From contig JAAZCF010000165.1 of assembly GCA_012513425.1 (NCBI GenBank), positions 1-54,894 of the forward strand: a DNA stretch of 54,894 nt, in the 5' to 3' direction. This stretch comes from Bacteroidales bacterium. GTDB taxonomy: Bacteria; Bacteroidota; Bacteroidia; Bacteroidales; UBA932. Position numbers and translations under genes: made by a program. Shown here in pieces: positions 9,192 through 54,894 of the stretch; position 1 is the first letter of the stretch; each line of letters opens with the position of its first letter. A model generated the notes under the pieces. The model searched no databases. It was not told the origin of the DNA and worked only from the letters and a program-made list of their open reading frames with translations.

Positions 9192-10599
9192 TATAATAGT
9201 CACCTCCTACACTCGGTCTGCGCCAATACGACCCGCCGCCTTTACGTAAGCTCGTTGGTGCAGCCAATACAACTGGTTTTCTGAAATAAATAAACGCTCC
9301 AGATAATGCGTCTACAGTGTCATCTTTTATACCGTAAGGAAACACATCTAACTCATCAAATAGTGCTTGTTTGTTTCTACAACGGTCAGTAATGAAGATT
9401 CGCCCCTGTTGCATTGCCGAAGATACCGGCCTCGCCCGCTCAACCTTCGAACCTGTAGACCGTACACCCTGAAAGTCATACCCATTCAACACATTTCTTG
9501 CATAGTGGTCAATCGTAATATCTCCAGACGAGCCAGGTTCCTGTTCCATACGTATTGCACAGTTATATCCGTCAATATCAGCCGTAGCACGGATAATATC
9601 TTCTACCTCAGCTGGTGTCTTCTGAACACGTACAATATCCTCAATCCAATATAGCCCTTGATGATGCGTCAGCTTTAGTCCTACAGTCCAGTCAGGCTCG
9701 CGCTTGTCTTTGCTCTTACGCTTGGACGGGTCTGTAGATGCCATATCCCAATATCTAACCCGCTGTGCTTGCTCCGGTATGTCGCTTGAAGGAACCAGCG
9801 TTATCCATGTATGACTGAACATGTCACCTGCTGCCTTAATTTCCCAGTTACCATTCAACAACTGCTCCCGCGTTACAGGGTCAAGCTCCTGAAGGGTCTG
9901 CATATACTCCTCAGCATCAAGGTGAGGATTATCTTGAATACCTGCAGGCACAAAGACGCGTCCTTTCTCTGGACCTTCTACAAAGAACCGTTGGTAGTAG
10001 TACTCTCCATACTCACCACCGGGGTTCGCAGTTGCTCTGAACCGCAGCGGCACGTTCAGCCACTTCGGCTTGCGCAGACGAGAGAACAGGTAGGTGTAGT
10101 TAGCTGGAGAGATATGCGTTACCTCGTCCATTCCTATATACTGGAACTCAGCACCCTGATAGCGAAAGTGGTCATTATCGGACTCAAGGTAACCGAACGA
10201 CAGTGTGGCACCAGAAGGGAACGTAAACTTTTTCTCTTTTTCAGACCACTTAACCTCGCCAGAATCTACAAACGGCATTAGCCATTCCTTCGCCATGGAG
10301 ATCAATGCACCAGGCAGAGATAAGTCTGCATAAGTTTTACGGAACAGAATAGCAGAGTACCCAGGGATATCTACAAACTGCAACGCAGCTGCAAGCTGAT
10401 ACACTGATTTTCCTCCACCCGCAGCTCCGCCATACAGAAGCTCCTTGACATTATTCATCAACAGACAAGCTGACTGTTTCGGTGTTGGTGTTATAGGAAT
10501 GTATTTAGTCAATCGCGGCGTCAGTGCTTTCTTCAGCGCCCCGACGTCTACACTCGACAAGTCAATATTATTGAAATCCGGCTTCACTGCATTACCCAC
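9184..10599 (-). CDS. Terminase large subunit
   Basis: 471 aa with Walker A GGAAGGGKS, Walker B-like YIGMDE and a C-terminal nuclease region. GTG start follows RBS GGAGGTGA. Confidence 0.9.
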   Translation of the reverse strand: MGNAVKPDFNNIDLSSVDVGALKKALTPRLTKYIPITPTPKQSACLLMNNVKELLYGGAAGGGKSVYQLAAALQFVDIPGYSAILFRKTYADLSLPGALISMAKEWLMPFVDSGEVKWSEKEKKFTFPSGATLSFGYLESDNDHFRYQGAEFQYIGMDEVTHISPANYTYLFSRLRKPKWLNVPLRFRATANPGGEYGEYYYQRFFVEGPEKGRVFVPAGIQDNPHLDAEEYMQTLQELDPVTREQLLNGNWEIKAAGDMFSHTWITLVPSSDIPEQAQRVRYWDMASTDPSKRKSKDKREPDWTVGLKLTHHQGLYWIEDIVRVQKTPAEVEDIIRATADIDGYNCAIRMEQEPGSSGDITIDHYARNVLNGYDFQGVRSTGSKVERARPVSSAMQQGRIFITDRCRNKQALFDELDVFPYGIKDDTVDALSGAFIYFRKPVVLAAPTSLRKGGGSYWRRPSVGGDYYNV

Positions 10600-11057
10600 C
10601 GTCTTATCACCTCCATCTGCTCAGGTGTGTAGAACGCTTGCTTGCTGTACCACTCAACCCAATTGCCATCCGACTTAGAGCTGTTACATCTCTGGCAAGC
10701 AGGCACGATATTCGGCCGTGTTGTTAGTCCTCCCTTACTAACAGGCACGACATGGTCTCTTGTCAGCTTTATCTTCCTGGACTGTTTAGTTCTACAATAG
10801 GCACACGCACCTCGAAAGTGCAGCATCACATCGCGCCAGTCCTGTAGAGTGTAGGTATGCTCTTCGCCGGTCCGATGTTTTGTATTATTCAGAAACTTCG
10901 TTACCGCTTTATGTTTCGTCAACTTCCTAGTAATGTTGTAACACTCTTTACAATCATTGCGGTAGCGTGTTCTACCATATTTGTCTTTTCCATTCTTCGG
11001 AAATTCCTTGATTGGTTTTTCTACACCGCACACAGTGCAGACTTGTTTATCATTCAT
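10584..11057 (-). CDS. HNH endonuclease with an N-terminal Zn-ribbon, terminase-associated
   Basis: C-terminus RDHVVPVSKGG...NIVPACQRCNSSK is an HNH motif. The N-terminus is CTVCG...RYRNDCKECY. It lies between the small and large terminase genes. Confidence 0.85.
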   Translation of the reverse strand: MNDKQVCTVCGVEKPIKEFPKNGKDKYGRTRYRNDCKECYNITRKLTKHKAVTKFLNNTKHRTGEEHTYTLQDWRDVMLHFRGACAYCRTKQSRKIKLTRDHVVPVSKGGLTTRPNIVPACQRCNSSKSDGNWVEWYSKQAFYTPEQMEVIRRWVMQ

Positions 11058-11787
11058 CCTTAACTACCACCTCTGTTGTAACCGTCTGGCGCACGCCGAT
11101 GTTGCTCAGCACCCCCGCTTTACCAAGAATATTGAGAATCTCTGAAATGTTCTCAGTACTAATGTCGACTTTCTTCAACTCAGGGTTTGTATCATCTACA
11201 CCCAAGTCTGTAGAAGACTTCGGCACTTGGTCAATTCTAGCCTTGCGCTCCAGTTCTGTCGCTGTCTTCATTAACGCATTAATCTCACGAGGTGATAGTG
11301 AGTAAGGGTCAATATTAGTAATTGCCCTTTGTATCTTATCATTAAGCGCTTTAGCCATTTCTACATGCCTCTTGTTCATCTCAATAATCTCTTGTTCGCG
11401 CTGTTTGAGAGTAACTTCATCTACATGCTTTGCCCAAGCTTGTAGTCTTGCAGGGAATGACCACCGTTGTGCTATCTTTCTAACAGCATTGACTGTAGTA
11501 CCTAGTTGTTCCGCAACGTCCCGGTAGCTTGGTCGTTTCCCCGGATATGCATCACGGTAGCACAGCCACACTGAGTACTCCCAGTCTGTTTCAGTAGGTT
11601 GTCGTTCCCACAGCTCTAGGTCTGCTTCCTTTGCAACGTCCATCCAGTTGAAGTTATGTTGTCTATAATAAGATACACGACTATTTTCTGCTTTTACGCA
11701 ATCTTCGCATAGATGCCGGTTTTCTTTGTGAGGCGGTTTCACCTGGGCGCAGCGCCGGCATGTTATTGTTTCTACAAGCTCGCTCAT
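11050..11787 (-). CDS. Terminase small subunit candidate (Zn-ribbon plus HTH)
   Basis: First gene of the late block. It has an HTH-like YRDVAEQLGTTVNAVRKIAQRW and an N-terminal CRRC...CEDC. Confidence 0.55.
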   Translation of the reverse strand: MSELVETITCRRCAQVKPPHKENRHLCEDCVKAENSRVSYYRQHNFNWMDVAKEADLELWERQPTETDWEYSVWLCYRDAYPGKRPSYRDVAEQLGTTVNAVRKIAQRWSFPARLQAWAKHVDEVTLKQREQEIIEMNKRHVEMAKALNDKIQRAITNIDPYSLSPREINALMKTATELERKARIDQVPKSSTDLGVDDTNPELKKVDISTENISEILNILGKAGVLSNIGVRQTVTTEVVVKDE

Positions 11788-12002: not shown

Positions 12003-12405
12003 TTATACCCATTATTTATACGTAAACCGAGCCCCGTAAATGTATATACTACCGCGTAATTTTTGGACCTACACCTTGCAAATTTTGGACTGTTAATCTA
12101 CAGGCTGTAGATAGACGTGGACTCTGTTCCTCTATATCGCGAGCGCCGTAGCGCCAGGCGCGGGCAGAATTGTCAGAAAATTCGCGCAATTTTTGGATCG
12201 TCAGAATTGTCTGACAATTCAGAATAATCACTGTTTCACATGCAATTGAGACTATTCAGAATGTTCACGATTTCATATGCAAATGAAAATATTCTTACAA
12301 TTCTAAATATTCACGATTGCACATACATTTGCAACAATTCATTTTTATGCAATCATTCACATAAATATGAAATTGTGGCAATTCTGTGAACATTCCATTT
12401 TTCTG

Positions 12406-12434: not shown

Positions 12435-12593
12435 ATAATTGTAAGTTGAATAAATAAATCAAACATTGAAAGCGTGGTGAAATTGCATGGCAATTTGAAA
12501 CAATTCTGACAATTCTGATTCGTTCTTTGACAACTGAATATTCTGACAATTCAGCGTATATCAAAATTACAAAGTGAAAGGGGAAAATTAGTT

Positions 12594-13232: not shown

Positions 13233-13623
13233 TCTACACAGACCGGGATTGGCCCATGGCCCGGTCTTTAAAATAAATAAACCCACGCCAGGGGGAGAAA
13301 GGCATTGAATTGTCAGAATATTCAGAATTATTGCGGCCTCGATTGGCCAAAGCTGAACCGTGCTGCATAGACGCGGTCTCAATTAGACTGAGCTAAGCCG
13401 CATAAAAGCCATCGCAATTGGCCCCTGCGTCACCAAGCAAAACCACACTGCATAAAAGCAGCGCCGCTTAGCTACACCTGACCTAGTTGTACTGCAATGC
13501 TGAACACTTTAGAAAATAAAATTGCTTATGCCATCCGCAAGGAAATGTAATATAATTAAAATAGTTACAGGAAATATAATCGCACCTGTAGCTACAATCA
13601 GCAAAATTATAAATTAGGAGTGA

Positions 13624-14247: not shown

Positions 14248-14709
14248 AACCGCGCAACGCAGCCCCGATTGGACGATGCTAAACTACAACCTGAATAATG
14301 AAGTTCCATTCCGGCTAATCGACACCGCATGTAGTTCTTATTCGATGCTGAGTTTAACTACAGGCATGTGGACAAACACGGAAACCCATTACCGCAAGGA
14401 ACCGCACGCGGCCTCGATAGGTCCGAACTGAATCAGATAAAGCGGCCTCGATAAGACCATGCAATACAGCGCCACCGCGACCTTAGTTAGACGGAGTTAA
14501 AGACGGTATCTCACTACAGTGAGTCGTGTGCAGCTGCATAAAAGCAACTGCAGTAGGTCCCGTATCATCGAGCAAGACCGTACCACCATCTGCAGTAGAG
14601 CGCGGAAAATAAAATTTCCTGAATCATCTGCGTTAAGCTTGGTTATAATATAAGTAGAGTTAGAAAATAACTCAAAAATAAAAATTACAAAGTGAGGAGC
14701 GATAATATC

Positions 14710-15522
14710 ATGGCAAAGAAACAACTTAATAACGGTGTAGCTGTTAGCAACGACGCGCTGAACGGATTGTTCGCGGAAGAGGTTCAGGTGGTGAAGGTTG
14801 GCGGTGCAAATCAACTATCAAAGACTGCTCAGCTTACGCAAGTAGCTACAGTCATTGCAAACGAGATTTTTGCGAAAATCACTGCTGACCCAGAAACTTA
14901 CCAAGCAAAGGTTCTTGAGAGCCAAAAATCGCACGATGCAATGGATGAGCTAATCGATGAATTGTATCAGCTCGATACGGTAGACACAAGCTTCTTGCAA
15001 TCAGAACCTGAAGAGACTCTTGAGAAAATGATTCGCTCGCAGCAATCAAAACGTTCTCGAGCTAAAGGCAAACAAATGACTAAAGAGAACTACTTGAATA
15101 TGATGGTTGGAGCAATCTCAGAGAATCTACTACGCTTGGTTACTGGCAAGCCAAAGTCAGCTGGCGGCGGATATGTTGCGAAAGACATTGTCTACAGCGA
15201 AAAGGATTTAGAATATCTTGCACAGCATCCTACGGAGCTGAAAAAAGCAATCCGCAACATTCAAAGCAAGAAGTCAATTATGAAATCAAAAGCAGACTTT
15301 GACCCACAAAGCGAGCGTTGGCAACAGTTACTACAGGCCGAGCAACAGCTTAAGGAACTTCGTAGCCACGTAAATGGTGCGGTTAATAAAGAAGCCAAGG
15401 AAGCGTTAGAGGCGAAACAAAAGCTGGAAGAAATGTTAGCAACTAGAGACCTCGACAGCTTGCCACCAGAAGAAGCAAAGCAGCTACTCGATGCTGTTAA
15501 AGAAATGCTTGCTAGTAAGTAA
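14710..15522 (+). CDS. Hypothetical early protein (IQSKK-motif family, larger paralogue)
   Basis: ATG 14710 follows RBS AGTGAGGAG. The tracked GTG start lies inside the RBS. Motifs are ELKKAIRNIQSKKSIMK and MIRSQQSKRSRAK. Confidence 0.6.
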   Translation: MAKKQLNNGVAVSNDALNGLFAEEVQVVKVGGANQLSKTAQLTQVATVIANEIFAKITADPETYQAKVLESQKSHDAMDELIDELYQLDTVDTSFLQSEPEETLEKMIRSQQSKRSRAKGKQMTKENYLNMMVGAISENLLRLVTGKPKSAGGGYVAKDIVYSEKDLEYLAQHPTELKKAIRNIQSKKSIMKSKADFDPQSERWQQLLQAEQQLKELRSHVNGAVNKEAKEALEAKQKLEEMLATRDLDSLPPEEAKQLLDAVKEMLASK

Positions 15523-15525
15523 CGA

Positions 15526-15554
15526 GGGGTGCGTTTAGCGCCCCATTTATTTTA
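15526..15554 (+). terminator. Rho-independent terminator
   Basis: GGGGTGC gttta GCGCCCC followed by ATTTATTTTA. Confidence 0.7.
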
Positions 15555-15571
15555 TAAACGAGGTGAGACTG

Positions 15572-15727
15572 TTGCTGGCCGCATTTATGATAGTAGTATT
15601 CTTTTGGCGACTATGGGAGCTCATTCAACTAGACCGTTGCGCCAAGCATGGACACAAGTTCAAAGTCAATGGTAAGTATCTACAATGTGAAAGGTGTTAC
15701 ACAGTAATATATAACAGCCGCCAGTAG
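15572..15727 (+). CDS. Small membrane / Cys-rich ORF (46-51 aa)
   Basis: RBS GAGGTGA, then TTG 15572 or in-frame ATG 15587. The product is ..MIVVFFWRLWELIQLDRCAKHGHKFKVNGKYLQCERCYTVIYNSRQ. It is bracketed by two terminators. Confidence 0.4.
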   Translation: MLAAFMIVVFFWRLWELIQLDRCAKHGHKFKVNGKYLQCERCYTVIYNSRQ

Positions 15728-15741
15728 GCGGTTTCTTTTTT
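15717..15741 (+). terminator. Rho-independent terminator
   Basis: CCGCC agta GGCGG followed by TTTCTTTTTT. Confidence 0.75.
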
Positions 15742-16107
15742 AGACCGTAGCGCGGTGTCGATTGGACGGCGTATAGCATATCTACAGGCTTGTGGACAAA
15801 CTTCGCCACGCGGCACTGAGGGTAAGATTCAATGCAGCCTCGATTAGCCAAAGCTACTACTATACATCGGCGCAGCGCCACTCGGCCCAGGTTAGTTGAA
15901 CTACAGGTCTGTGAACATATTCCGCCATGCGGCGCTGAGGGGTCTCTGCGGCGCGGCCTCGATTAGTCAAGGTAGTACTTCACTATAGAGAAATAGTGCC
16001 ACTTCGCCCAATCGAAACCGCGATTATTACCTACAGTCTGCTTTGGCCTATAAAAGCAAATCTCGTAGACCCCGCGGCGCAGCGATGCAGTGGCGTCATA
16101 TTTTTTA

Positions 16108-16151
16108 GCCTATAAAAGCAAACTCATTGGCCTATAAAAGCAAACTCATTG
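16108..16151 (+). repeat. Perfect tandem duplication of a 22-bp unit
   Basis: GCCTATAAAAGCAAACTCATTG occurs twice, with a degenerate third copy at 16046..16065. Confidence 0.95.
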
Positions 16152-16330
16152 AACTACCTCGCCGCAGCGCCGGTGTAACTACAGGCATATTTATAATGGT
16201 TGCTGTGCTGGTGTAATTATAGGAAGATTCAGAACTGTTACTGGGTTAGTGAGTGGCGCGGCGCCGCGCGGCTGTCAGCCAAGCGAATCTGCGCGGGTTG
16301 GAGTCACCAAGCGTCGTATATTTATTGGAT

Positions 16331-16990
16331 CAGGTTGAGGTATTAAAATATTGAGATATTAAAATATTGAGATTTTGAGGTACAAGCGACTTTTTACTAC
16401 AAACCCAAGCGTATCAAGACTTTGAAGGGCTTCTGATTATCTTAATAACTCAATTAACTTAATTATCTAAATTATCTAAGTGACCTTGCGCGATTCGGAG
16501 CGGCTATATATAAATTGATAACTTTTTATAAATATGTCTATTAATTTCTATTAATGGATATTGCTAACTACAGTTCTTTCTAATATTAATTTCTATTATA
16601 TTATATAATCCAAAAATAATCTGATAAAATTCGTGCTAAAGAAAATAATAAATTACTATATAGATATAAAAGAAATCATATAGTATTGTAGATATATAAT
16701 TAGCACGAAAATTATCAGATTATATTTAGCTAATAGATATATTACATATGTAGATATATTTCTATATCCATATCCAGTATACATAATGTCTGTAGATAAA
16801 TAAAAAAGCTCATTTTAATAAAGGGATTCTAAATCGCGCGAGGTTGTTTAGATAATCAAAATAATTGAGTTAATTGAGGTGGTTGAGGTACATAGAAAGC
16901 TTCTAAAGCCTTGATACGATTGGGTTTGTGGTAAAAAAGTTATCTTAAAATCTAACACCTTAATATTTAATCTACCTCAATTATTGTTTA
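16331..16990. repeat. Imperfect palindrome of about 660 bp: 170-bp arms around an AT-rich iteron core (origin candidate)
   Basis: The left arm (16331..16500) matches the reverse complement of the right arm (16826..16990), for example CTTTTTACTACAAACCCAAGCGTATCAAGACTTTGAAG vs CTTTTTTACCACAAACCCAATCGTATCAAGGCTTTAGAAG. A nested inverted repeat lies at 16616..16639 / 16701..16724. Confidence 0.8.
16341..16372 (+). repeat. Perfect tandem duplication of a 16-bp unit
   Basis: TATTAAAATATTGAGA occurs twice, inside the left arm of the large inverted repeat. Confidence 0.95.
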
Positions 16991-17087
16991 TCTCAGCCGC
17001 GCTGCGGCACTGTGTCACATACTATCTACACCATTGTAGATACATAATAGCTGAATCACACCCATCAAAACTCGTGCAACAAAAGTG

Positions 17088-17124
17088 TTATATCAATTAA
17101 ACCTTGTGCGTATAATATAATTAG
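17088..17124 (+). promoter_or_regulatory. Promoter-like element with the GCGTATAATATAATTAG block
   Basis: TTATAT (17088..17093), a 17-nt spacer, then TATAAT (17111..17116). It lies 37 nt upstream of ATG 17153. Confidence 0.45.
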
Positions 17125-17152
17125 AGCGACCAACATAATAGGAGGTAACTGT

Positions 17153-17614
17153 ATGTTTGAGTGCAAATTGTGCCATAATCTACTACCAAAAGAAATGGAA
17201 TGTACATCGCATGAAAGGCTGTGTAACAAGTGTAACAACATGCTACACATATACAGACGCGCTATGTCTCAATCATCAATAACTGTAGAGCAACAAATGA
17301 CAGTAGCATATGTAGAAAGATTGATTGAGCACAATAAACAACGAGGCGGCTATGTGCCAAAGATCTACAACCGCCCATTGTCTGTTTACAAATGTGAGTA
17401 TTGTGGTAATAACTTTGGGTCAAGAGTCCAGACCAGTAAGTGTGAAGAGTGTAAGAAGCGTGAGGCTGTTTACCGGACATTGATACACAAAGTTAAAAGA
17501 ACTGGTAAACACTCCGACCGCTTAGCAGAAATAGAGGAATATTATACTATACAAGAGCGGCGCGGCTTGAAGGTGCCGAAAATATTCTTAAAACATCGAG
17601 GTGAGTTGTTGTGA
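17153..17614 (+). CDS. Double Zn-ribbon protein, tandem paralogue A
   Basis: 153 aa with RBS AGGAGG. Motifs are CKLC...CNKC, EHNKQRGGYVPKIY and CEYC...CEEC. Confidence 0.65.
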   Translation: MFECKLCHNLLPKEMECTSHERLCNKCNNMLHIYRRAMSQSSITVEQQMTVAYVERLIEHNKQRGGYVPKIYNRPLSVYKCEYCGNNFGSRVQTSKCEECKKREAVYRTLIHKVKRTGKHSDRLAEIEEYYTIQERRGLKVPKIFLKHRGELL

Positions 17615-18063
17615 TTATTACATGCGCACTGTGCCATCAACAAGGAGAGAGATCAAGTGCGAATCGAAGACTATGTAAGCCATGTAATCGTAAGCTGAAT
17701 AAGTACAAGAGGTTAGTAGTTAAAGACAGGGCAAAGCTTCCTCCAGGTAATATAAAACTATTAGAACAAATGGAAGCAATGTTCGAGCATAATAAGCAGC
17801 ACGGCGGCTATGTGCCGCAGTTCTATGGCAAACTTTTGTATGAGGGTACATGTGTTACATGCTTAAAACGTTTTAAATGGGTGTCTGGAAATGATATATG
17901 CCCAAATTGCAGAAAAGATAAAACTATGTTCTATGTCTATTATAACAAGCATGGCCTGGTTGGCAAAGCAGCAGAATATTATGACTACTATCTAGACTTG
18001 TATAGAAAAGGTCGTAAAGTTCCTCAATTGTTTATCGACCTATATACAGGCAAGAAGAAATAA
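17611..18063 (+). CDS. Double Zn-ribbon protein, tandem paralogue B
   Basis: 150 aa with a GTGA start/stop overlap with paralogue A. Motifs are CALC...CKPC, EHNKQHGGYVPQFY and CVTC...CPNC. Confidence 0.65.
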   Translation: MIITCALCHQQGERSSANRRLCKPCNRKLNKYKRLVVKDRAKLPPGNIKLLEQMEAMFEHNKQHGGYVPQFYGKLLYEGTCVTCLKRFKWVSGNDICPNCRKDKTMFYVYYNKHGLVGKAAEYYDYYLDLYRKGRKVPQLFIDLYTGKKK

Positions 18064-18097
18064 AAACGGACCTGCTACTTAAGCAGGTCCTTTAATT
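18062..18097. terminator. Bidirectional terminator between convergent plus and minus blocks
   Basis: GGACCTGC tacttaa GCAGGTCC is flanked by AAAAA on the left and TTTAATT on the right. Confidence 0.7.
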
Positions 18098-18256: not shown

Positions 18257-18469
18257 TTATTCAGCAAATGGTGGTTCGGGTAATGGTAGCCAATGGGTCA
18301 CAGCTTTTTCGTGTCTCCACTCCAAACTATTAAAGAGATCCAATTCAAGTACATAAAATTTTCCGTTTTTGAATTTCGCTATATCATAACCACCGTAATA
18401 GTATATCAGATATTTTCCGTCTGATTCTGGTAGCCTTTCTTTAACGCTAATCCATTCATGCATCTTCAT
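18257..18469 (-). CDS. DUF551-like protein
   Basis: Start trimmed to MKMHEWISVKERLPESDGKYL, which matches the typical DUF551 signature WISVKDRLPE. Confidence 0.55.
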   Translation of the reverse strand: MKMHEWISVKERLPESDGKYLIYYYGGYDIAKFKNGKFYVLELDLFNSLEWRHEKAVTHWLPLPEPPFAE

Positions 18470-19052
18470 CCTCTCCCTCGTCAGTGTAGTTGTCCTCGTA
18501 TTCGTCGAATCTCTCAAGCACTTTGTTTAAAAGGTCGCGGTGAGTGTCATCGTATATCGGCTTGTAGGTATTAGAATCTACACCGATTTGTGGTCGGTAT
18601 TTCTTAATCAACTCATCGGCCACAACATCTTGTAGATACTCTGGGTCATACTGCGAAAGGTCTGCATTGAGCCAATCCAAGAGCTCCTGCGGCGCTGCGG
18701 CACTGACTAACTCGTCGGTGTCCTCTACGGAGCTGGTACTATGCTTCTCGAGCAACTCATCTACAAGATTCAGGATTGTAGAGCGTTCCCGCTTGGATGG
18801 TGGCTTGAGGCCCTTAGCGCGTAACAGGTCGTACAGCTGCTCGATTTTATCTAGCTCCTGTAGTTCCTGCTCGCTGGCTCTGCCGTTGGACTGTTTCTTG
18901 CAGAGGTATTTGTACCGGGTGTTGATGGATTCGCAGGCCTTGCAGGTGCGGTAGCGCCCGCGCTCTTTGCCGGTGCGCGTCTCGCCGTAGTATTGACGGA
19001 ATTCGGTTTCTAGTTTGATTTCGCCACATTGTCTGCACTTTCTAAACTTCAT
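18456..19052 (-). CDS. Zn-ribbon module protein with an acidic C-terminus
   Basis: N-terminus CRQCGEIKLETEF...RYRTCKACESINTRYKY. The tail reads DEYEDNYTDEGEDEDA. Confidence 0.55.
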   Translation of the reverse strand: MKFRKCRQCGEIKLETEFRQYYGETRTGKERGRYRTCKACESINTRYKYLCKKQSNGRASEQELQELDKIEQLYDLLRAKGLKPPSKRERSTILNLVDELLEKHSTSSVEDTDELVSAAAPQELLDWLNADLSQYDPEYLQDVVADELIKKYRPQIGVDSNTYKPIYDDTHRDLLNKVLERFDEYEDNYTDEGEDEDA

Positions 19053-19332
19053 CTGTTATATGCTCCTTTAGTAGATTGTTTGCTTTATTTATAGTAGCAT
19101 TTAGTGTATCAAGTTCGTATTGTAGATAGTAAAGTGATAAGTTGATGACTTTATCGAAGAGGCCAGGCGCTTGCTCTCTTGTAATAGAAGCATGTTGCAA
19201 GAAGGAGGAGCTGAATTGCAGCGCTGGGTTGTCGTCTTTTTCTGCTATACGCTTGATTGCTTGGATTTTGTTTTCAATCATGTCACGTTTTTCTACCAAC
19301 TGATTTAGTTTGTAGATATAGTCTTCTTTCAT
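19042..19332 (-). CDS. Hypothetical coiled-coil protein
   Basis: Start trimmed to MKEDYIYKLNQL (ATG 19332, RBS GAAAGGA). Confidence 0.45.
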   Translation of the reverse strand: MKEDYIYKLNQLVEKRDMIENKIQAIKRIAEKDDNPALQFSSSFLQHASITREQAPGLFDKVINLSLYYLQYELDTLNATINKANNLLKEHITDEV

Positions 19333-28009: not shown

Positions 28010-28417
28010 TTATATCTTTACTACTTGTATACCTGCGGCGCGGAGTAGCCTCAGTCCTGTGTCCTCTTTCCAGTCCTCAAAATAGTACACTGTAGAAAAC
28101 CCGCCAGGTGTGTTAATAATCGCTGCGGCGCATTGTTTGCACGGTGCCAGCGTTACAAACATCACTTTGTCAGGGTCTTGGCATTTATTTTTAACCAGAC
28201 AATTTATCTCTGCATGGACACACCCATATTTGCCATCTACAACACATAGACAATTAGCGAGTCCTTTCGGTCCACCGTTCAATCCAATGCTGTAGACTTG
28301 AGTAAAATCTTTATCTGTTATGATTGCTGCTACTTTTCTTTCTCGGCATTTTGATAGTGTAGCTAGATTTTGCGTAAATTCTTTAAAGACCTTTAATCTC
28401 ATGTTCAATTGGACCAA
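28010..28417 (-). CDS. dCMP deaminase (ComEB / cytidylate deaminase family); start uncertain
   Basis: Zinc motifs CVHAEINC and PCKQCAAAI. About 130 aa. Confidence 0.8.
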   Translation of the reverse strand: MVQLNMRLKVFKEFTQNLATLSKCRERKVAAIITDKDFTQVYSIGLNGGPKGLANCLCVVDGKYGCVHAEINCLVKNKCQDPDKVMFVTLAPCKQCAAAIINTPGGFSTVYYFEDWKEDTGLRLLRAAGIQVVKI

Positions 28418-29036
28418 CCGCCTTTTCTAACTGCATTATTAGATAGCTGAAGATTTTGTCGCGACGTTCTTCAGTTAAACCCATACGCCGGCCTGTAGTT
28501 CCGTATTTATCAAACCACTTGAAAGGATTTTCCTGATACCGCGCTACGCTACCGCATTTCTCACACATAGGAAGCATGTTCCATGCTGTATAATGGCCAC
28601 CACTTTTAAACGGCACAAAGAACTCGCGCTTTGCTATATACTCATCGCCACATATTGCGCATCCTCCAAAGTATGAACAAGTCTGTAGCCACTCTTCCTC
28701 TGTCATCGGCTTGAAAGTCTTGTTGCTTAACTCAAGCCACTTTTTGAACAGCTTTTCAGCATATTCAGCACGGCGCTTGTGAAAGTTATGGCGGTTCTTT
28801 GCATGTAGGTCTGGCCTGCGTTTGTTAAATTCATTTTTACGGTTACTTTCGCATCGCTTACATCTGGTCTCAAGTATGCCTTTCTTGCTCATATAAAACT
28901 CTTTAAACGGCTTCCATTGCTTGCAAGTTCTACAAAACTGTGTAGGAAAATACGTTTTGCAAAATTTACATTTTTGAGCAATGTAGCTGAGAGGGAATTC
29001 CCAGCCACATTTATTACAAACTCTTACTGAGTTCAT
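28383..29036 (-). CDS. Zn-ribbon module protein with an HNH-like C-terminal domain
   Basis: The N-terminus has CNKCG...CKFC and CRTCKQWKPFKEF...RCKRCESNRKNEF. The C-terminus is CAICGDE...GGHYTAWNMLPMCEKCGS. Confidence 0.55.
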   Translation of the reverse strand: MNSVRVCNKCGWEFPLSYIAQKCKFCKTYFPTQFCRTCKQWKPFKEFYMSKKGILETRCKRCESNRKNEFNKRRPDLHAKNRHNFHKRRAEYAEKLFKKWLELSNKTFKPMTEEEWLQTCSYFGGCAICGDEYIAKREFFVPFKSGGHYTAWNMLPMCEKCGSVARYQENPFKWFDKYGTTGRRMGLTEERRDKIFSYLIMQLEKAVGPIEHEIKGL

Positions 29037-31222: not shown

Positions 31223-34117
31223 TTAAAAATCAGCTGAACTATAGAACTCTTTACGCGCTTCCTCAACTTGCTGTCTTGTAATCCTGTTGGCTCTTAAGTA
31301 CTCTAAGAACTCTGTACCAAGTGGGAAACGTCTGTAGTCCCCACGAACTTTTTCTACAAGGTGGTTGTTTGTCAAGAACTTCAATAATACTCTTAGTTCG
31401 TCTTTAGGCAGACCTGTGTAGTCTTCTAGTGTACTTCGGCTGAAGTAAGGTAAGCCGTATAATATGTCAACAGTTTCGTTGTGGTCCATAATAGGCAGTA
31501 CAAGGAACTTCTTAACAAGCGCTTCAATTGTATTCTTAGACGCATCGCTTTGAGCTTTGTCGATTTCGCTCAGCTTATCGTAACCCAGCGCTTTAGAACT
31601 GTAGAGTCTATTCATAAAGTTCACAACAAAATCTACATGTTCCTTTTTAACTACAAGGTCTTCACCATCGGTTGTAGAAAACATACAAGCCGCACAACTA
31701 ACCGAAAGCCTTGCTATTTTTATACGTTGGTCAGCAGCCTCAACTACTGGCACCTTGGAACTATACTTACGACCCATGTCAGTTGCATGACTTAATATTG
31801 CATCAACAGCTTCGGGTTCAAATTTCACGTTTTCTGGCCTGCGACTCCATGCCCAAAGAACGCGTAAGTTACATAAGTCAGAGTCATACACGTGTAGAAC
31901 CTCAGGCATATCATCTACAGACTTGTTGATAATAGAAGGGTCAATGTCATTATACGCAACACCCACAACTAAATCTAACCGCCGTACATCTTCTGTTTTA
32001 CCGAACAGTTTAAGTACAGCACTTATACCATGCGTTTCAGTGTTGAGCGGTCTTCCGTTTCTAGGGTTCGAAATATAGATAGCCCGCGTTCTTGCAGAAG
32101 TTTCCGCTGTAATAACACCAGTAGACTTCGCGATACCAGATGAACGCACGTCTGACATTTCAGCAAGGCTTTCTTCAGATAGCCCAGACAATTCATCGAT
32201 ACACAACAGTCCTCCATCATTTAATGGAAAAGCACCCCACACAAGAAACCAGCGCTTATTCGTTTGCTGGATGTTGTAGACTAGACCAGTACGTCTTGAT
32301 GACTCACCTGAGTGCATTTCTCCTAGTCTGTAGTGACTCATGATACGTTCTACAAGAGTAGACTTAGCTTGCCCAGAATCTCCTATGATTAGTACTTCCC
32401 CCCAGCCACGTTTAATGAACTGGTTCTGGAAGTAAAAATGTAATATAGTATGATAGATAAGGTCTACAGCAATGGCAACGTCGCGGCGGTCCCATACATA
32501 AGTGACATTACGCTCTAAGTCTTTGTGAATTTCATTCATCTTATCTTCTACAGATTGTCCTGGTTTTGGTTGGAATATTTTTAATCGTTCATAAACGTCT
32601 TCAGTCATCTCGAAGTCACTGATAATGTCCTTTTCAGGATACGCCTTGTCAAAGATATAGGTTGCATACTGTGACTGTGGATCCGGAAACATATATCCAA
32701 CCATCGTGTAGCGTTTATTTGTCTTGATGTTGTTACCTATATAGTATCCGTTCCTAACTACATACTCGTGTTCCTTTGCAAAACCAAAATTTGCTTCTGC
32801 TTTCGGTATCATGCGAACTTCTTCAATGTTCATGTGCTCTTCAATTGTTATTGTAAACGCTGGACAACTTTTGTTAATACCAAGCATTTCTACAATTGTT
32901 GCGTGTTGTTGCTTTTCTGTGACCTTGATAAGCTTCATTAAGTCCTTGTCAGAAGCTTTTAGCTCTTTAGTCATTTCACCAGCATACATACATAATCTAC
33001 AAGACTGACAAGCTTTCTTTTCAGAGTCAGCTGCATCACCACAGTATGCTCTTATTTTCTTCGGTGCAATATACGGTGTAGGGTCTTTACCAGACACCAT
33101 AATAGGCACTTGAATCCGCTTACCATACAAAGATGCATCGGCAGACTCAGCTAGATGAACATCTTTTGCTTCAACTTCCTCAGCCAAAGTTTCGCCAAGT
33201 AACGGATCAACATACTTAGTTGCGTTATCTAGTAATTTTCTAAAGTCTTCAGCAGAGTAGCCACACTTTACGAAGAAGTCCGTTACGTCACCTTTATGCG
33301 GGAAGTCTTCTGGCCAGTTAATTACATAAACCTCTACAGCTCTACAAAGTTTCTCACAAAGTTTCTTTGTAGCATTACGACCAGCTTCATCATTATCCTG
33401 AACGATGTAGACCCGCTTTTTATTTCTAAAATATCGTATCCATTCTGGTTTCCATGTACCGGCACCAGATGTAGGACACGCGGCTGGGAAGCCATACTGC
33501 TCAGCGATGATGCGGTCCATCTCACCTTCACACCAGACAACCTCTTCAATATCATCATTTACTAGGTTTTCAATACCAAAGATACGAACTTCACCATATG
33601 TGTTGCCATACTCATCTACATAGTTTAGTACTTTCCATTGGTCGTCTGTCGAGTTCCATTTGTATCTTCTAAAGTTGACTAGTGTGTTGAACTCATCATA
33701 GATTGGAATAGTTATACGTTCTCCGTCCCAACCAAGCTGGAATCTGACTGTTGTTTCATCGGTTAAACCGCGGCGCTCCCGTAGTACTTGTCGTATTGGG
33801 CCAGTGAGCTTCATCAAGGCTTGATGGTATTCGGCTACAAGGTCTACATCAATCTCAGGCCTAGCTGGTTTTGAGCTGTTTGGTCGTTCAATTTTTAGAG
33901 CATCACCTAACTCAAACCATGCTTGTTCACTTGTCAGATTATACAAATGCTTGTAAAGAGTATGTGCGTTACCTTTACTATGACAAGTTTGACAGTAATA
34001 TACACCTTTGTCCAAGTTAACTGTGAACGATGGTGTGTTGTCCGTTTGTTTCTCATGTAGATGTTTAAATGGACATTCGGCTTTTATTTCGTTGCCTCGC
34101 CTTGCTATATTTTTCAA
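31223..34117 (-). CDS. Bifunctional DNA primase-helicase
   Basis: 964 aa. It has a CHC2-type zinc finger (CPFKH...CQTCH), a Toprim domain (WCEGEMD, VQDNDEAG), Walker A GDSGQAKST and Walker B LLCIDEL. Confidence 0.85.
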   Translation of the reverse strand: MKNIARRGNEIKAECPFKHLHEKQTDNTPSFTVNLDKGVYYCQTCHSKGNAHTLYKHLYNLTSEQAWFELGDALKIERPNSSKPARPEIDVDLVAEYHQALMKLTGPIRQVLRERRGLTDETTVRFQLGWDGERITIPIYDEFNTLVNFRRYKWNSTDDQWKVLNYVDEYGNTYGEVRIFGIENLVNDDIEEVVWCEGEMDRIIAEQYGFPAACPTSGAGTWKPEWIRYFRNKKRVYIVQDNDEAGRNATKKLCEKLCRAVEVYVINWPEDFPHKGDVTDFFVKCGYSAEDFRKLLDNATKYVDPLLGETLAEEVEAKDVHLAESADASLYGKRIQVPIMVSGKDPTPYIAPKKIRAYCGDAADSEKKACQSCRLCMYAGEMTKELKASDKDLMKLIKVTEKQQHATIVEMLGINKSCPAFTITIEEHMNIEEVRMIPKAEANFGFAKEHEYVVRNGYYIGNNIKTNKRYTMVGYMFPDPQSQYATYIFDKAYPEKDIISDFEMTEDVYERLKIFQPKPGQSVEDKMNEIHKDLERNVTYVWDRRDVAIAVDLIYHTILHFYFQNQFIKRGWGEVLIIGDSGQAKSTLVERIMSHYRLGEMHSGESSRRTGLVYNIQQTNKRWFLVWGAFPLNDGGLLCIDELSGLSEESLAEMSDVRSSGIAKSTGVITAETSARTRAIYISNPRNGRPLNTETHGISAVLKLFGKTEDVRRLDLVVGVAYNDIDPSIINKSVDDMPEVLHVYDSDLCNLRVLWAWSRRPENVKFEPEAVDAILSHATDMGRKYSSKVPVVEAADQRIKIARLSVSCAACMFSTTDGEDLVVKKEHVDFVVNFMNRLYSSKALGYDKLSEIDKAQSDASKNTIEALVKKFLVLPIMDHNETVDILYGLPYFSRSTLEDYTGLPKDELRVLLKFLTNNHLVEKVRGDYRRFPLGTEFLEYLRANRITRQQVEEARKEFYSSADF

Positions 34118-43622: not shown

Positions 43623-43847
43623 GGAAATCCCTCCTTTATCTCGTTTTTGTGTTTTTTCTTAATTATCTTGGTTATCTTAATTATTTAAGCCGTCACGGAT
43701 AGGGTGGGCCTTTATAAAAAACAAAATGATTTTTATTTTTTGAAAACAAAAATTTAAAAAGGTCGGTTAGATAATTGAGATTTCTAAAATAATTAAGATA
43801 ATTAAAATATTAAAATAATGGCCTTTTTTCAATAATAAAATTAATTA

Positions 43848-53161: not shown

Positions 53162-54894
53162 TATCTAACACCCCTAGCGCTCTCATTCAATCTTATTACA
53201 TTCATTCTACGCTCAAGTTCACGCAGGCTTCGGTCATCAGCAATTAATGTTCCCACGTAAAGGATTTGTTGACCGCCGCCCCACTGTTGCGTACCAGGTT
53301 GAGGAGCTATCGATTCCTGCAAGTGCCGCGCCACTGCCTCGGCGAACGGCTGCATTGCTCCTGGATTTTCCAATGGGATAATTGCTTCTCGTCTGCCGCG
53401 TTCACCTACACGAACAATGGATTCTTCGTCTATAATACCGCCTTTTGCGAATCCAGCAATTTTACCAACCTCTATTACCTGTGTTGTGATACCACTACCA
53501 CTAGAAATAAAGGAAGGTATCTTAATGTTACCTAGAACTTCTCCAACCTTAGAAGGAATAGATTTAATGGCTTCCCAAATAGCTCCAGGTAACTTACCGA
53601 ATTCCTTGGCAATAGCTGAAACTACTGTAGGAATCTTGCTAGGTAACTCCCCAATTAAATCAGCAAAGGTTTTAGGAAGGTCTTTAATAGCATCCCAAAG
53701 CTTTCCTGGAATCTTACCTACCTCGGAACCGAAGTTGGTTACGAAGTCAACTACTGCTTTAATACCTCGGCTAACCCAGTCACCTATGATTTGTAGGGCT
53801 GTCTGAGTAGCTGTTGTGAAGGCTTTAATTAGTTCCGAAGACCATGTTAAAAAGCTAGCAACAGTCTCAGAGACCCAACCAGTAATAGATTTAGTAGTTC
53901 CACTTACCCAGCCAGCAATAGATGTGGCAGTACTAGAAATCCAATCTGCTACAACTTGAGCTGTATCTTTAGCCCAGCTAGATATTGCTGAGGCTACGTC
54001 GGATACCCAGGCTGTGAAGGAATTCCATGTATCAGAGACCCACGATGCAATCGCTTCTGAAGTATCTACAACCCATTGGCTTATCGTATCTATAGTGTCA
54101 GTAGCCCATTCTGCTAATGTGTTTCCTATGTCCGTAGCCCAGGTTACTACTGCATCCCAAACTCCCGACAGCCATGCCTTAATTTCGTCCCAGAATGGTG
54201 CCAGAAGTAATATAATCCCAGAGATAGCAGCAGCTATTGCAGCTCCTACAAGTGTTACAGCTCCGGCAGCCGCCTCGAATGGTAAGGCTACTACAGATAA
54301 CGCTCCGACAGCAACAGCAGCAAGTACTCCAATGATACCCATTAGAACCATCTGCCAGTGCTCACTTAGCCAAGCTCCGAAAGCAGAGAAGCCATTTTTG
54401 ACTCCAGTCCAAACAGTATCTATAACTGTACTCCAGCCTGTAATGAACCACTCGCCGAAGCTAGACATAGCGTCTCCTAATGCTTGGATAGCCGTACTCC
54501 ATCCAGTAACGAGCCACTCGCCAAGACTAGAGAGACTTTCACTAATAGTTGTACTTACAACAGCCCAGCCGACATCCCATATAAGCTCCAACGATTCTAC
54601 CATGTAAGCCAATTCTGCCAGCGCATCAGTTGCCCAGGCTCTTATTGGCGCAAGTACAGGTTCAAAAGCAGGTGAAGGAAGATCAATCATTGGCCATTCC
54701 CATTCTGGCCACTCCCATTCAGGCAGTGTAGGCCACTCCCACTCTGGTAACGGAATCGGGTCCCATGCAGGTATTGGAATAGGTTGCCATTCCCATTCAG
54801 GTAAAGGAATAGGTTGCCATTCCCATTCAGGTAAAGGAATAGGTTGCCATTCCCATTCAGGTAAAGGAATAGGTTGCCATTCCCATTCAGGTAA
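53161..54894 (-). CDS. Tail tape measure protein, C-terminal part
   Basis: The frame of tracked ORF 53161..54690 stays open upstream to the window end, reading (LPEWEWQPIP)x4...LPEWEWPEWEWPMIDLP. This is followed by a long WxxxxxW/TDxxxxW helical repeat region. Confidence 0.85.
   Translation of the reverse strand, partial: LPEWEWQPIPLPEWEWQPIPLPEWEWQPIPLPEWEWQPIPIPAWDPIPLPEWEWPTLPEWEWPEWEWPMIDLPSPAFEPVLAPIRAWATDALAELAYMVESLELIWDVGWAVVSTTISESLSSLGEWLVTGWSTAIQALGDAMSSFGEWFITGWSTVIDTVWTGVKNGFSAFGAWLSEHWQMVLMGIIGVLAAVAVGALSVVALPFEAAAGAVTLVGAAIAAAISGIILLLAPFWDEIKAWLSGVWDAVVTWATDIGNTLAEWATDTIDTISQWVVDTSEAIASWVSDTWNSFTAWVSDVASAISSWAKDTAQVVADWISSTATSIAGWVSGTTKSITGWVSETVASFLTWSSELIKAFTTATQTALQIIGDWVSRGIKAVVDFVTNFGSEVGKIPGKLWDAIKDLPKTFADLIGELPSKIPTVVSAIAKEFGKLPGAIWEAIKSIPSKVGEVLGNIKIPSFISSGSGITTQVIEVGKIAGFAKGGIIDEESIVRVGERGRREAIIPLENPGAMQPFAEAVARHLQESIAPQPGTQQWGGGQQILYVGTLIADDRSLRELERRMNVIRLNESARGVR
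54775..54894 (-). repeat. Four tandem 30-bp units (three perfect) encoding LPEWEWQPIP
   Basis: The unit aggaataggttgccattcccattcaggtaa lies at 54805, 54835 and 54865. The first copy, at 54775, has one mismatch. Confidence 0.95.

Follow-up and report, generated by a model that had tools for sequence, protein, structure and literature searches.

Our analysis supports a 660-bp palindromic element, located at positions 16331–16990 of a 54,894-nt genome of an uncultured phage (the whole stretch of DNA analyzed, hereafter the window), as a cis-acting DNA element that is conserved and built like a replication origin, and we infer that it is probably the main origin of DNA replication of this phage. 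Its design is of a known kind, and its sequences form a new family. An earlier interpretation made from the letters alone (the sequence-only reading) had suggested an origin or another cis-acting element at this site; the cis-acting role and the origin anatomy hold up, whereas the repeat that it had taken for the core iteron does not.

The palindrome itself was confirmed. Gapped local alignment of 16356–16495 with the reverse complement of 16832–16966 gave 110 identical columns out of 130 and a score of 103, compared with 18.8 ± 2.5 (maximum 28) in 200 shuffles. Gapless segments of the arms were 74–76% complementary (I1, 16449–16515/16812–16878; I3, 16391–16445/16883–16937), and the long exact runs ACAAACCCAA and CGTATCAAG quoted by the sequence-only reading were present in the arms together with their respective complements. 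As had also been proposed, there is no credible ORF: none inside the palindrome exceeds 48 aa, and the ORF-free stretch, from about 15523 (or 15730) to 17152, far exceeds the palindrome. The left arm carries a central block, TTTTTACTACAAACCCAAGCGTATCAAGACTTTGAAGGGCTTCTGATTATCTTAA (16391–16445, + strand), with a counterpart in the right arm (I3); the right central block (16893–16937, − strand) is the reverse complement of the left one and is kept in the relatives L181, L015, and L019. This block is common to six arm copies from three phages. A GC “clamp”, CCTTGCGCGATTCGGAGCGGC (16484–16504, no strand), marks the left edge of the core and is mirrored, according to the arm alignment, by a right clamp, AAATCGCGCGAGGTTG (16822–16838, no strand); GC at the spacer-proximal ends recurs in relatives, for example as GGGCGTCAAAAAG in L052, L038, and L005. 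At their inner ends, the left arm has TGCGCGA and the right arm TCGCGCGA, which means that the strings previously quoted for these motifs were approximate. Just outside the right arm, a perfect palindrome, TATCTACA-ccat-TGTAGATA, had been noticed and does exist, one base away from its reported position, at 17023–17042 (no strand). It is retained with one change in L181 and missing in L015 and L019. It is operator-like and made of a genome-wide word, and it probably does not belong to the array system.

The repeats specific to the locus are TTGAGGTA/TTAAGATA-type units, present in about 14 copies that form four arrays. Exact TTGAGGTA occurs four times, as the sequence-only reading had counted, at 16335, 16375, 16883 (+), and 16973 (−), and nowhere else in the genome; TATTAAAATATTGAGA, correctly reported as occurring twice, is a tandem pair, and there are three copies of ATTATCTAA/TTAGATAAT. 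In the two arms, the unit family TT[GA]AG[GAT]T[AGT] numbers 7 and 6 members, where random placement gives 4 per 200 nt at most, and Tandem Repeats Finder (TRF) confined period-9 AT-rich arrays to the palindrome and a second module described below. The outer-left array (16331–16384, + strand) consists of TTGAGGTA, TTGAGATA, TTGAGATT, and TTGAGGTA at 16335, 16351, 16367, and 16375, with units facing the center and periods of 16 and 8 (TRF period 8 × 5.6 and 16 × 2.4). The inner-left array (16434–16482, − strand; TRF period 9 × 5.0) reads outward as TTAGATAA TTTAGATAA TTAAGTTAA TTGAGTTA TTAAGATAA with a 9-nt period, and the inner-right array (16845–16892, + strand) reads outward with the same period as TTAGATAA TCAAAATAA TTGAGTTAA TTGAGGTGG TTGAGGTA. 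The outer-right array (16938–16998, − strand) again has center-facing units, at 16941, 16956, 16973, and 16989, and includes ATCTCAATTATTGTTTATCTCA, which is unchanged across the window, L181, and L015. Farther left, 22-nt direct repeats, TTGGCCTATAAAAGCAAACTCA (16043–16148, + strand), comprise a tandem pair at 16105–16148 and a 77% copy at 16043. Their spacing is that of classical iterons, two helical turns, and they lie about 350 nt from the core; they possibly belong to the same functional region as the palindrome.

Between the clamps lies an AT-rich core (16505–16804, no strand; 16–23% GC), a candidate DNA-unwinding element. Nearest-neighbor duplex stability in the 54.9-kb genome reached its minimum here when assessed over 100, 200, and 300 nt (z 4.3–5.4). 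As had been described, the core contains its own inverted repeat (I2, 16604–16661/16678–16735), whose arms match at 74% around a 16-nt gap. The sequence-only reading had also counted at least five copies of TGTAGATA in the core; only three are exact (16687, 16749, and 16791), and the count of five holds for the shorter TAGATA, all on the + strand (p about 0.001). TGTAGATA is not specific to the locus: it is a genome-wide 8-mer (37 copies compared with 3 expected) that is enriched across the phage family as well; the locus-specific family is that of TTGAGGTA/TTAAGATA. We also rejected TGTAGATA as a DnaA box: a perfect box is lacking, A is not preferred as the next letter, and canonical boxes form no cluster. 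The perfect DnaA box TTATCCACA is absent, and the excess of one-mismatch matches is due to TTATCTACA only.

We then compared the locus with its relatives. Against L010, a relative with 86% identity, 4-fold codon sites were 79% identical, while the arm central block was 98% (52/53) and the inner repeat array 96% (22/23) identical; since the arm block and the inner array are more identical than the 4-fold sites, the palindrome is under purifying selection. The 22-nt repeat zone (16061–16160) was likewise 97/100 identical, with three tandem copies in L010. In the outer array of L010, the TTGAGGTA units are retained and the spacers replaced, a pattern of iteron-like concerted evolution. The sequence-only reading had named a recent degenerate duplication without conservation as what would speak against it; instead, the element was found at the same site in all relatives reaching that site, and its position is shared by relatives with as little as 58% protein identity. 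In relatives to about 40% protein identity, opposed arrays with a period of 8–9 nt flank an AT-rich trough at the same position, and about 15 relatives have an AT trough (9–21% GC) that begins or lies 0.7–1.3 kb downstream of one and the same gene. The TTRAGAT core recurs in the arrays of L019, L052, L038, and partly L005, and other units occupy those of L056, L008, and L058. In five relatives (L010, L015, L017, L057, and L181), contig ends fall in or close to the element; as every closer assembly breaks within it, the sequence of the core was compared in one relative, L019. An exact search for the arm block found no other copy in IMG/VR or elsewhere in the window, and an IMG/VR scan for TTTTGACGNTTTTGACG, which looked for a second locus with the unit of L005, returned at least 120 loci, the pattern being too common, with the L005 contig contributing no more than its two known arms. 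DNA similarity searches of the region and of a 12-kb context against deposited phages and a tblastn search with the neighboring gene were both without a match, so there was no annotated relative to rely on; a search for relatives via the DUF1256 gene found none.

A second, smaller module (43654–43819, no strand) is built from the same units as the palindrome and occupies the region that ranks second in the genome for low duplex stability. Its two opposed arrays, a left one of TTATCTTAA-type units (43654–43688, − strand) and a right one reading TTAGATAA TTGAGATTT ... TTAAGATAA ... (43767–43819, + strand), flank a 78-nt A/T-tract spacer. The module is conserved in L180 (1806–1856/1949–1999) and L179 (359–409/479–529), and in the window and these two relatives it sits in a promoter-bearing gap heading the replication operon, which continues downstream with genes for a small ORF, SNF2, sigma, ligase, and primase-MCM. 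An operator would fit this position no less well than an origin.

The candidate trans-acting reader of the arrays is the primase-MCM helicase (31223–34117, − strand), a 964-aa protein comprising a DnaG-type Zn ribbon, a Toprim domain, an MCM AAA+ domain, and a modeled C-terminal winged helix. Pfam assigned an MCM P-loop domain (E 1.5e-14), Zn_ribbon_DnaG, and Toprim_2, and the best PDB sequence matches were MCM2-7 and archaeal MCM; Rep of the staphylococcal pathogenicity islands (SaPIs) was absent among the PDB matches at E ≤ 0.01. In the AF2 model, the C-terminus adopts an H-b-H-H-b-b topology (pLDDT 85–90), for which the top Foldseek matches were MCM4, a MarR-family protein, ORC, and Sso10a (probability 0.9–0.99; best E 0.02, which is weak); the modeled fold is winged-helix-like. 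Pfam and PDB sequence searches with the C-terminal 250 aa and the middle region gave no match. The C-terminal motif GDYRRxPLGT is invariant across relatives, including P0184. This protein may belong to the L056 phage, whose array units look different (TTTTTAACT); if it does, an invariant motif alongside differing units counts against the origin reading.

The phage encodes a complete replisome including Pol A, in keeping with the primase-helicase plus Pol A replisome invoked by the sequence-only reading. No other initiator of the Rep, O, or DnaA-like kind was recognizable in the genome by Pfam or PHROG family, nor were genes for a protelomerase, tyrosine recombinase, transposase, integrase, partition protein (ParA/ParM/ParB), or lysogeny found. 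The main element lies 14.2 kb past the 3′ end of the helicase gene, and the second module lies 9.5 kb upstream of the helicase start. The distance of the main element from the helicase gene and the lack of a DnaA-box cluster count against the origin reading. GC skew is no indicator of an origin here, because nearly all genes are on one strand. The conserved gene adjoining the element has a modeled fold that is novel and all-helical (alignment A1, pLDDT 80), for which a PDB search gave no match (best E 1.6). Should the helicase not be the reader of the arrays, the 276-aa neighbor (14692–15522) and the Zn-ribbon proteins (17153–18063) would be the next candidates.

Based on these features, we infer how the origin might work. 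The TTGAGGTA/TTAAGATA-type arrays in the mirror-image arms would be binding sites for the phage initiator, with the inner arrays, each of about 5 units at a 9-bp period, facing away from the 300-bp AT-rich core, where the DNA would be unwound. These sites would most likely be read by the primase-MCM helicase, with its C-terminal winged helix making the contact; the helicase could assemble one ring per side, melt the core, and start bidirectional synthesis, with its DnaG-type domain supplying its own priming, as SaPI Rep/PriRep helicases do at origins of the iteron-AT-iteron type. The module at 43.65–43.82 kb might then be a second loading site, acting as an auxiliary or late origin or as an enhancer resembling P4 crr.

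A more specific version, which we consider unlikely, is an origin system with two sites read by the helicase, for which we know of no precedent among tailed phages. In this version, about six TTRAGNT units with a 9-bp period would template one primase-MCM hexamer, one winged helix per unit; the palindrome would load opposed rings, possibly two pairs, around the 300-bp unwinding zone; and the mini-module would act as another origin, used late or for rolling-circle replication, or would tie expression of the replication genes at the transcriptional level to occupancy by the helicase. If true, it would represent a bacterial-virus analogue of MCM double-hexamer loading without ORC or Cdc6.

The strongest rival holds that the arrays are operators of a phage transcription regulator, and that the palindrome and the 43.7-kb module are hubs of regulated promoters for early genes and for the replication operon, comparable to omega, ParR, and CopG-type repressor arrays, instead of replication starts. 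We judge this unlikely, yet it stays a rival, especially because the second module heads the replication-gene operon, lying exactly in the upstream gap in the window and in two relatives. The gene at 17153 has the main element upstream of it, both strands of the core contain promoter-like hexamers, and contiguous short repeats in direct and inverted orientation are typical of operator arrays. However, promoter-like matches in the region were not enriched (23, compared with 19.1 ± 5.5 in shuffles), and the conserved promoter of the downstream gene, GCGTATAATATAA (about 17108), is outside the palindrome, more than 100 nt past the outer array. Furthermore, no RHH or HTH regulator was recognizable among the large or small ORFs, and a 300-bp core at the stability minimum together with four arrays over 660 bp far exceeds what an operator needs.

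An improbable alternative is a packaging (pac/cos), partition, or DNA-organizing site, with a terminase small subunit or a centromere-binding protein on the arrays. The pac sites of P1 and SPP1 do have repeat sets on either side of the cleavage region, and several contigs of relatives end in or near the element. Such breaks are nevertheless expected from palindromic, very AT-rich DNA, and genome-length contigs of distant relatives end outside the element, 0.5–0.9 kb upstream of the neighboring gene. An HNH endonuclease gene directly adjoins terL and terS (10584–11787), as in cos-type phages, an arrangement that puts packaging close to terS and 4.5 kb from the element; the terS region carries a separate repeat family of its own, GAATTGTCnGACAATTC. 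Two modules per genome are also unlike a single pac site, and the lack of ParA/ParM/ParB and lysogeny genes argues against partition.

It is more improbable still that the region acts as a transcribed RNA, be it a long hairpin, a convergent or divergent pair of small RNAs, an RNA primer, or a regulator. A single strand does fold into one long hairpin (−209 kcal/mol, z −15.5), and upstream terminators (15526–15544 and 15716–15733) mark the zone as a separate transcription unit; the fold, however, is trivial because the sequence is palindromic. Arm mismatches showed no strand-specific wobble bias (13, 9, and 7 transversions), and no Rfam family matched at the gathering threshold, E ≤ 1 yielding only a chance lncRNA fragment inside the upstream gene; these two results indicate that the constraint acts on DNA. 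Relatives conserve the short units and their period, not the pairing partners. The GC-rich flank shows no unusual degree of structure (z −0.7 and −1.7), and GC-rich two-box repeats showed neither a consensus RNA fold nor covariation. Structured RNA, packaging, and partition, which the sequence-only reading had listed as alternatives, thus found no support.

Finally, a decaying inverted duplication, a functionless non-autonomous MITE-like transposon, or a hairpin-telomere resolution site, to which the long terminal inverted repeats around an AT-rich, ORF-free middle and the palindromic targets of protelomerases might point, is extremely improbable and largely refuted, as the arms are more conserved than synonymous sites, the position is the same to 58% and the architecture persists to about 40% protein identity, the arm block has no further copy in IMG/VR, the ends show no sign of a target-site duplication, transposase, integrase, and protelomerase genes are missing, and the center is an imperfect palindrome (I2).

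To our knowledge, very few phages have a known replication origin, and among uncultured phages hardly any do. The origin that we propose is a testable, sequence-level candidate for a large group of metagenomic phages. The family of the neighboring gene counts more than 1400 members, and that of the helicase more than 560. The candidate also provides a searchable grammar, in which a GC clamp is followed by 3–7 units with a period of 9 bp, and the same order returns in mirror image across an AT-rich spacer. A palindromic, AT-rich origin of this kind would explain why assemblies of these phages break at the locus. If the primase-MCM fusion reads the arrays, the system could serve as a minimal bacterial-virus model for symmetric placement of MCM-type rings on duplex DNA without separate loaders.

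Several known systems share parts of this design. In HSV oriL and oriS, the core origins of SV40 and papillomavirus, and archaeal oriC with its inverted ORB elements, inverted initiator sites flank an AT-rich center, and two helicase assemblies are loaded head-to-head on these palindromic origins; HSV oriL is a 144-bp palindrome, unstable on cloning, in a genome with several origins. Their initiators are UL9 (SF2), LTag/E1 (SF3), and Orc1/Cdc6 plus MCM, and their hosts are eukaryotic or archaeal; the resemblance to our element is an analogy of design, not homology. Two separated loci with the same initiator-binding repeats occur in P4 (ori and crr) and SPP1 (oriL and oriR), as two loci with the same units do in the present genome. 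P4 alpha is an SF3-type primase-helicase whose C-terminal DNA-binding domain reads octamer iterons in direct and inverted orientation, whereas SPP1 G38P is a separate origin-binding protein, and neither origin is a large palindrome. With iteron plasmids and lambda, the element shares a candidate AT-rich unwinding element beside repeats, and the 22-nt tandem repeats at 16105–16148, about 350 nt from the core, have the spacing of iterons; it differs in that an initiator gene of the Rep or O type and a perfect DnaA box are both absent, and in the dominance of mirrored 8–9-nt units instead of 17–22-bp direct iterons. The origins of SaPIs, lambda, and many plasmids lie beside or inside the initiator gene.

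SaPI origins contain iterons in two opposed sets around an AT-rich center, which are recognized through the C-terminal winged helix of a PS2-insert (MCM-like) AAA+ helicase that loads itself and may be fused to a primase, as in SaPI5, and SaPIs have no separate loader or initiator gene (PMC9371898). They span about 100–200 bp immediately downstream of rep and carry 6–12 penta- or hexanucleotide iterons (PMC9371898). Likewise, opposed arrays (16434–16482, −; 16845–16892, +) surround the core of the element described here, the same arrangement recurs in the 43.7-kb module, and an MCM-type AAA+ helicase is fused to primase domains. Unlike the SaPI origins, the present element extends over 660 bp with four arrays of 8–9-nt units and a 300-bp core, is accompanied by a second module, and lies 14 kb from the helicase gene instead of beside rep.

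The imperfect palindrome of about 660 bp at 16331–16990, proposed by the sequence-only reading as a replication origin or other cis-acting element, proved to be a real inverted repeat. Positions 16356–16495 align with the reverse complement of 16832–16966 over 110 of 130 identical columns (alignment score 103 versus 18.8 ± 2.5 in shuffles), and the gapless pieces of the arms are 74–76% complementary. Its core is AT-rich, as described (GC 16–23%), and contains the nested inverted repeat (16604–16661/16678–16735); the short motifs listed earlier are present, with small corrections. Nearest-neighbour duplex stability reaches its genome-wide minimum at 16505–16804 in 100-, 200- and 300-nt windows (z 4.3, 5.0 and 5.4), and the second least stable duplex lies at 43.6–43.9 kb.

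The window looks like a complete tailed-phage genome opened at an arbitrary point, from a phage whose host looks Gram-positive, Clostridia- or Bacillota-like. Packaging and structural genes (terS, HNH, terL, portal, capsid and tail) occupy 2.2–11.8 kb, tail, fibre and lysis genes 44–54.9 kb, and a replication and nucleotide-metabolism operon 18.4–43.6 kb. This operon encodes a family-A DNA polymerase, a primase-MCM fusion, ligase, RNase H and YqaJ exonuclease, together with an SNF2 helicase, VRR-NUC, a sigma factor and an SLH-amidase. The window has no gene for an integrase, protelomerase or transposase, and none for partition. Almost all genes lie on the − strand, and those on the + strand form a single 6-kb block (12.6–18.1 kb) closed by a bidirectional terminator (18068–18090). 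The element sits in this block, within the largest ORF-poor gap of the genome (15523–17152). A possible small gene at 15563–15727 (54 aa, hydrophobic N-terminus, C..H..C..C motif) is flanked by terminator-like hairpins (15526–15544 and 15716–15733), and one or two small genes are called at this position in relatives (e.g., 6910–7341 in L019), so that the truly noncoding stretch may start near 15730. Deposited phages include no relative at the DNA level and none via the neighbouring gene, and the closest protein matches among cultured phages show 25–45% identity.

Tandem 30-, 24- and 15-nt repeats at both window ends (54761–54894, 54691–54724, 61–136 and 204–257) fall inside the tape-measure gene, which spans those ends, so the window was probably assembled into a closed circle that was then opened within a repeat. 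The + strand ORF 318–1424 is a low-complexity antisense artefact. Pol A, a single 671-aa ORF here, is called as two ORFs about 420 nt apart (16863–18065 and 18484–19230) in the 96%-identical relative L180, which could reflect an intervening sequence, a frameshift or an assembly error.

TGTAGATA, previously taken for a core iteron, is not specific to the locus. The genome carries 37 copies of TGTAGATA/TATCTACA against 3.0 ± 1.8 expected (e.g., at 15677, 15779, 16687, 16749, 16791, 17023 and 17035, plus 30 more), 12 of them intergenic or unassigned; coding DNA carries it on either strand, with neither a strand bias nor an extended consensus. Under a third-order model it ranks first among outlying 8-mers (z 11.6), an enrichment traced to the shorter core ATCTACA, and it is also found in loci L001–L058 of relatives, being enriched 6–15-fold in relatives down to 40% identity. 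Around the element it is locally dense: the right half of the core has it three times on one strand, and the palindrome at 17023–17042 adds further copies. The word may be recognised by a conserved DNA-binding protein of the phage. Its identification as a DnaA box was rejected.

The repeats specific to the locus are the TTGAGGTA-type units: all four exact copies of this word in the genome lie within the element, and of the 60 copies of the relaxed unit TT[GA]AG[GAT]T[AGT], one arm holds 7 and the other 6, against a maximum of four per 200 nt under random placement. These units form four mirror-symmetric arrays: outer-left (16335, 16351, 16367 and 16375, +), inner-left (16438, 16446 and 16455 with two TTAGATAA, −), inner-right (16865, 16874 and 16883 with TTAGATAA and TCAAAATAA, +) and outer-right (16941, 16956, 16973 and 16989, −). 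With their 9-nt period, the inner arrays are oriented outward from the core, and TRF detects them independently. A 55-nt block (ACAAACCCAAGCGTATCAAGACTTTGAAGGGCTTCTG...) separates outer from inner array in each arm, and a GC-rich clamp edges the core on both sides.

Relatives were retrieved via the upstream gene (14692–15522), the downstream gene and the helicase. Both arms are present in the closest relative (contigs L010 and L015 of one sample, ~86% identical), whose contigs break inside them. Against this relative, 79% of fourfold sites in the upstream gene are identical, compared with 52/53 positions in the arm block, 22/23 in the inner array and 97/100 in the 22-nt repeats; in the outer array (75%) the TTGAGGTA units are kept while the spacers are replaced and the period shifts from 16 to 17. 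These patterns are the signature in sequence of a noncoding element under purifying selection with iteron-like concerted evolution, and such conservation speaks against a duplication relic. L181, which supplies a third right arm, and L019 have the block, the outer units and the downstream promoter GCGTATAATATAA in common. At 58% identity in the upstream gene and 78% in the helicase, L019 has the whole design, a GC-rich repeat zone followed by 77-nt arms (7941–8017/8253–8329, 78%) and a 235-nt core of 17% GC, with TTGAG units as in the window and the GGCTTTGAAGGGCTTCTG block. Some 15 more distant relatives have an AT trough (9–21% GC) 0.7–1.3 kb downstream of the homologous gene, adjoined by opposed arrays of units with an 8–9-nt period: (GTTGAGAT T)x3 per side in L052 (93% complementary, 69-nt spacer), GTTAAGAT/GTTAAGTT in L038, CGTCAAAAA plus GTTGAGAT in L005, GTTGAAAA/GTTAAAAA in L056, TGCGACAAA five times per arm in L008 and TAATCAC in L058. 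Throughout the relatives the grammar is common: outward from the spacer, a clamp containing GC is followed by 3–7 units with a 9-nt period.

In the closer relatives (L010, L015, L017, L057 and L181), contigs are interrupted within the palindrome or AT zone, suggesting that assembly failed at the element. Genome-length contigs (55–62 kb) of the distant relatives L006, L043, L047 and L052 stop 540–930 nt upstream of the homologous gene; such ends recur in independent assemblies, suggesting that the genomes really end there.

The second least stable region of the genome holds a small version of the element, comparable in size to the primary modules of distant relatives. Its left array (43654–43688, −, TTAAGATAA-type) and right array (43767–43819, +, TTAGATAA TTGAGATTT ... 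TTAAGATAA ...) are separated by a 78-nt A/T-tract spacer, in the gap after a DUF1256 gene at the head of the operon reaching the primase-MCM gene. The same units are kept in L180 (1806–1856/1949–1999) and in the L019 phage (contig L179, 359–409/479–529).

Two other repeat families occur in the window. A strand-specific two-box repeat, CTACAGGnnnGYGGACA followed after 45–60 variable nt by CAGCCTCGAYnRG, is found at 13336, 14262, 14358–14455, 15776–15859 and 15895–15978 and in loci of relatives (L009, L011, L013, L017–L020, L025 and L056). All six copies of box 2 lie on the + strand in gaps between + block genes, and the repeat is conserved across relatives, also in their other early intergenic gaps. 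It showed no consensus RNA fold or covariation, and may act in the early operon as a signal in the transcript or as a site for protein binding. The 17-bp palindromes GAATTGTCnGACAATTC (12167–12183, 12204–12220, 12536–12552 and 13307–13323; four copies versus 0.33 expected) form a separate family in the divergent gap from terS to the + block, alongside 37–46-nt tandem repeats (12213–12340); these sequences may serve as operators or be bound by terminase.

Among the window's ORFs, no recognisable Rep, O, DnaA-like, RHH or HTH protein offers itself as a reader of the units. A candidate reader is the 964-aa primase-helicase, in which an MCM AAA+ core is joined to a Toprim domain and a DnaG zinc ribbon, and its PDB matches are MCM proteins. 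Its last ~130 residues model as helix-strand-helix-helix-hairpin, a winged-helix topology (pLDDT 85–90), for which Foldseek ranks MCM4, MarR-family regulators, ORC and Sso10a on top, with weak E-values (best 0.02). The protein is 70–96% identical across 563 relatives, a breadth matching that of the TTRAG unit core. The upstream gene, always 5′ of the element, belongs to a family of at least 1438 proteins without a Pfam domain but with invariant basic motifs (SQQSKRSRAK and RNxQSKKSIMKSKADFD); its 276-aa product has a confidently modelled all-helical fold (pLDDT 80) without a PDB match, which neither supports nor excludes it as a binder. Directly downstream of the element lie two paralogous double-zinc-ribbon proteins (17153–17614 and 17611–18063), which evolve much faster than their neighbours (55% identity where the upstream gene has 86%); terS, the HNH protein, 18456–19052 and 28383–29036 have similar CxxC...CxxC N-termini.

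The best-supported reading of these sequence features is a replication origin, which we consider moderately probable. The arrays would be opposed initiator or helicase loading sites on either side of an unwinding element, and loading would also occur at a second site, the 43.7-kb module. P4 and SPP1 are two-site systems. ICP1 has two origins, used at different stages (PMC7145576). Our confidence is limited by the large distance between the element and the helicase gene, by a core that could be compared with just one relative, and by the position of the second module, which suits an operator equally well. This last point counts towards reading the unit arrays as operator arrays, which we regard as rather doubtful overall. 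A packaging site, raised earlier, is unlikely: an HNH gene adjoins terL/terS, the terS-proximal gap has its own repeat family, relatives' genome-length contigs end upstream of the neighbouring gene and outside the element, and each genome has two modules. Action as a structured RNA is also unlikely, given no Rfam match, no wobble bias and conservation of units and period rather than pairing. A transposon, duplication relic or telomere is contradicted by selection, the fixed position and the absence of other copies and of the relevant enzymes.

As a replication origin, the design would be of a known kind, with mirror-symmetric initiator sites about an AT-rich unwinding element, as in SaPI ori, HSV oriL/oriS, the SV40 core origin and archaeal oriC with inverted ORBs. 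The closest precedent is the published SaPI system, in which Rep helicases of an MCM-like clade (primase-fused in SaPI5) self-load at origins whose iterons, two opposed sets around an AT-rich centre, are read by a C-terminal winged helix (PMC9371898). The phage element should nevertheless not be classed with the SaPI origins: it lacks their defining adjacency to rep, the phage helicase gave no sequence link to SaPI Rep at E ≤ 0.01, and its binding to the element is a prediction. What is new is the sequence family, the compound 660-bp palindrome with four arrays and a 300-bp core, the 9-bp-period grammar common to a large uncultured phage group, and the conserved second module.
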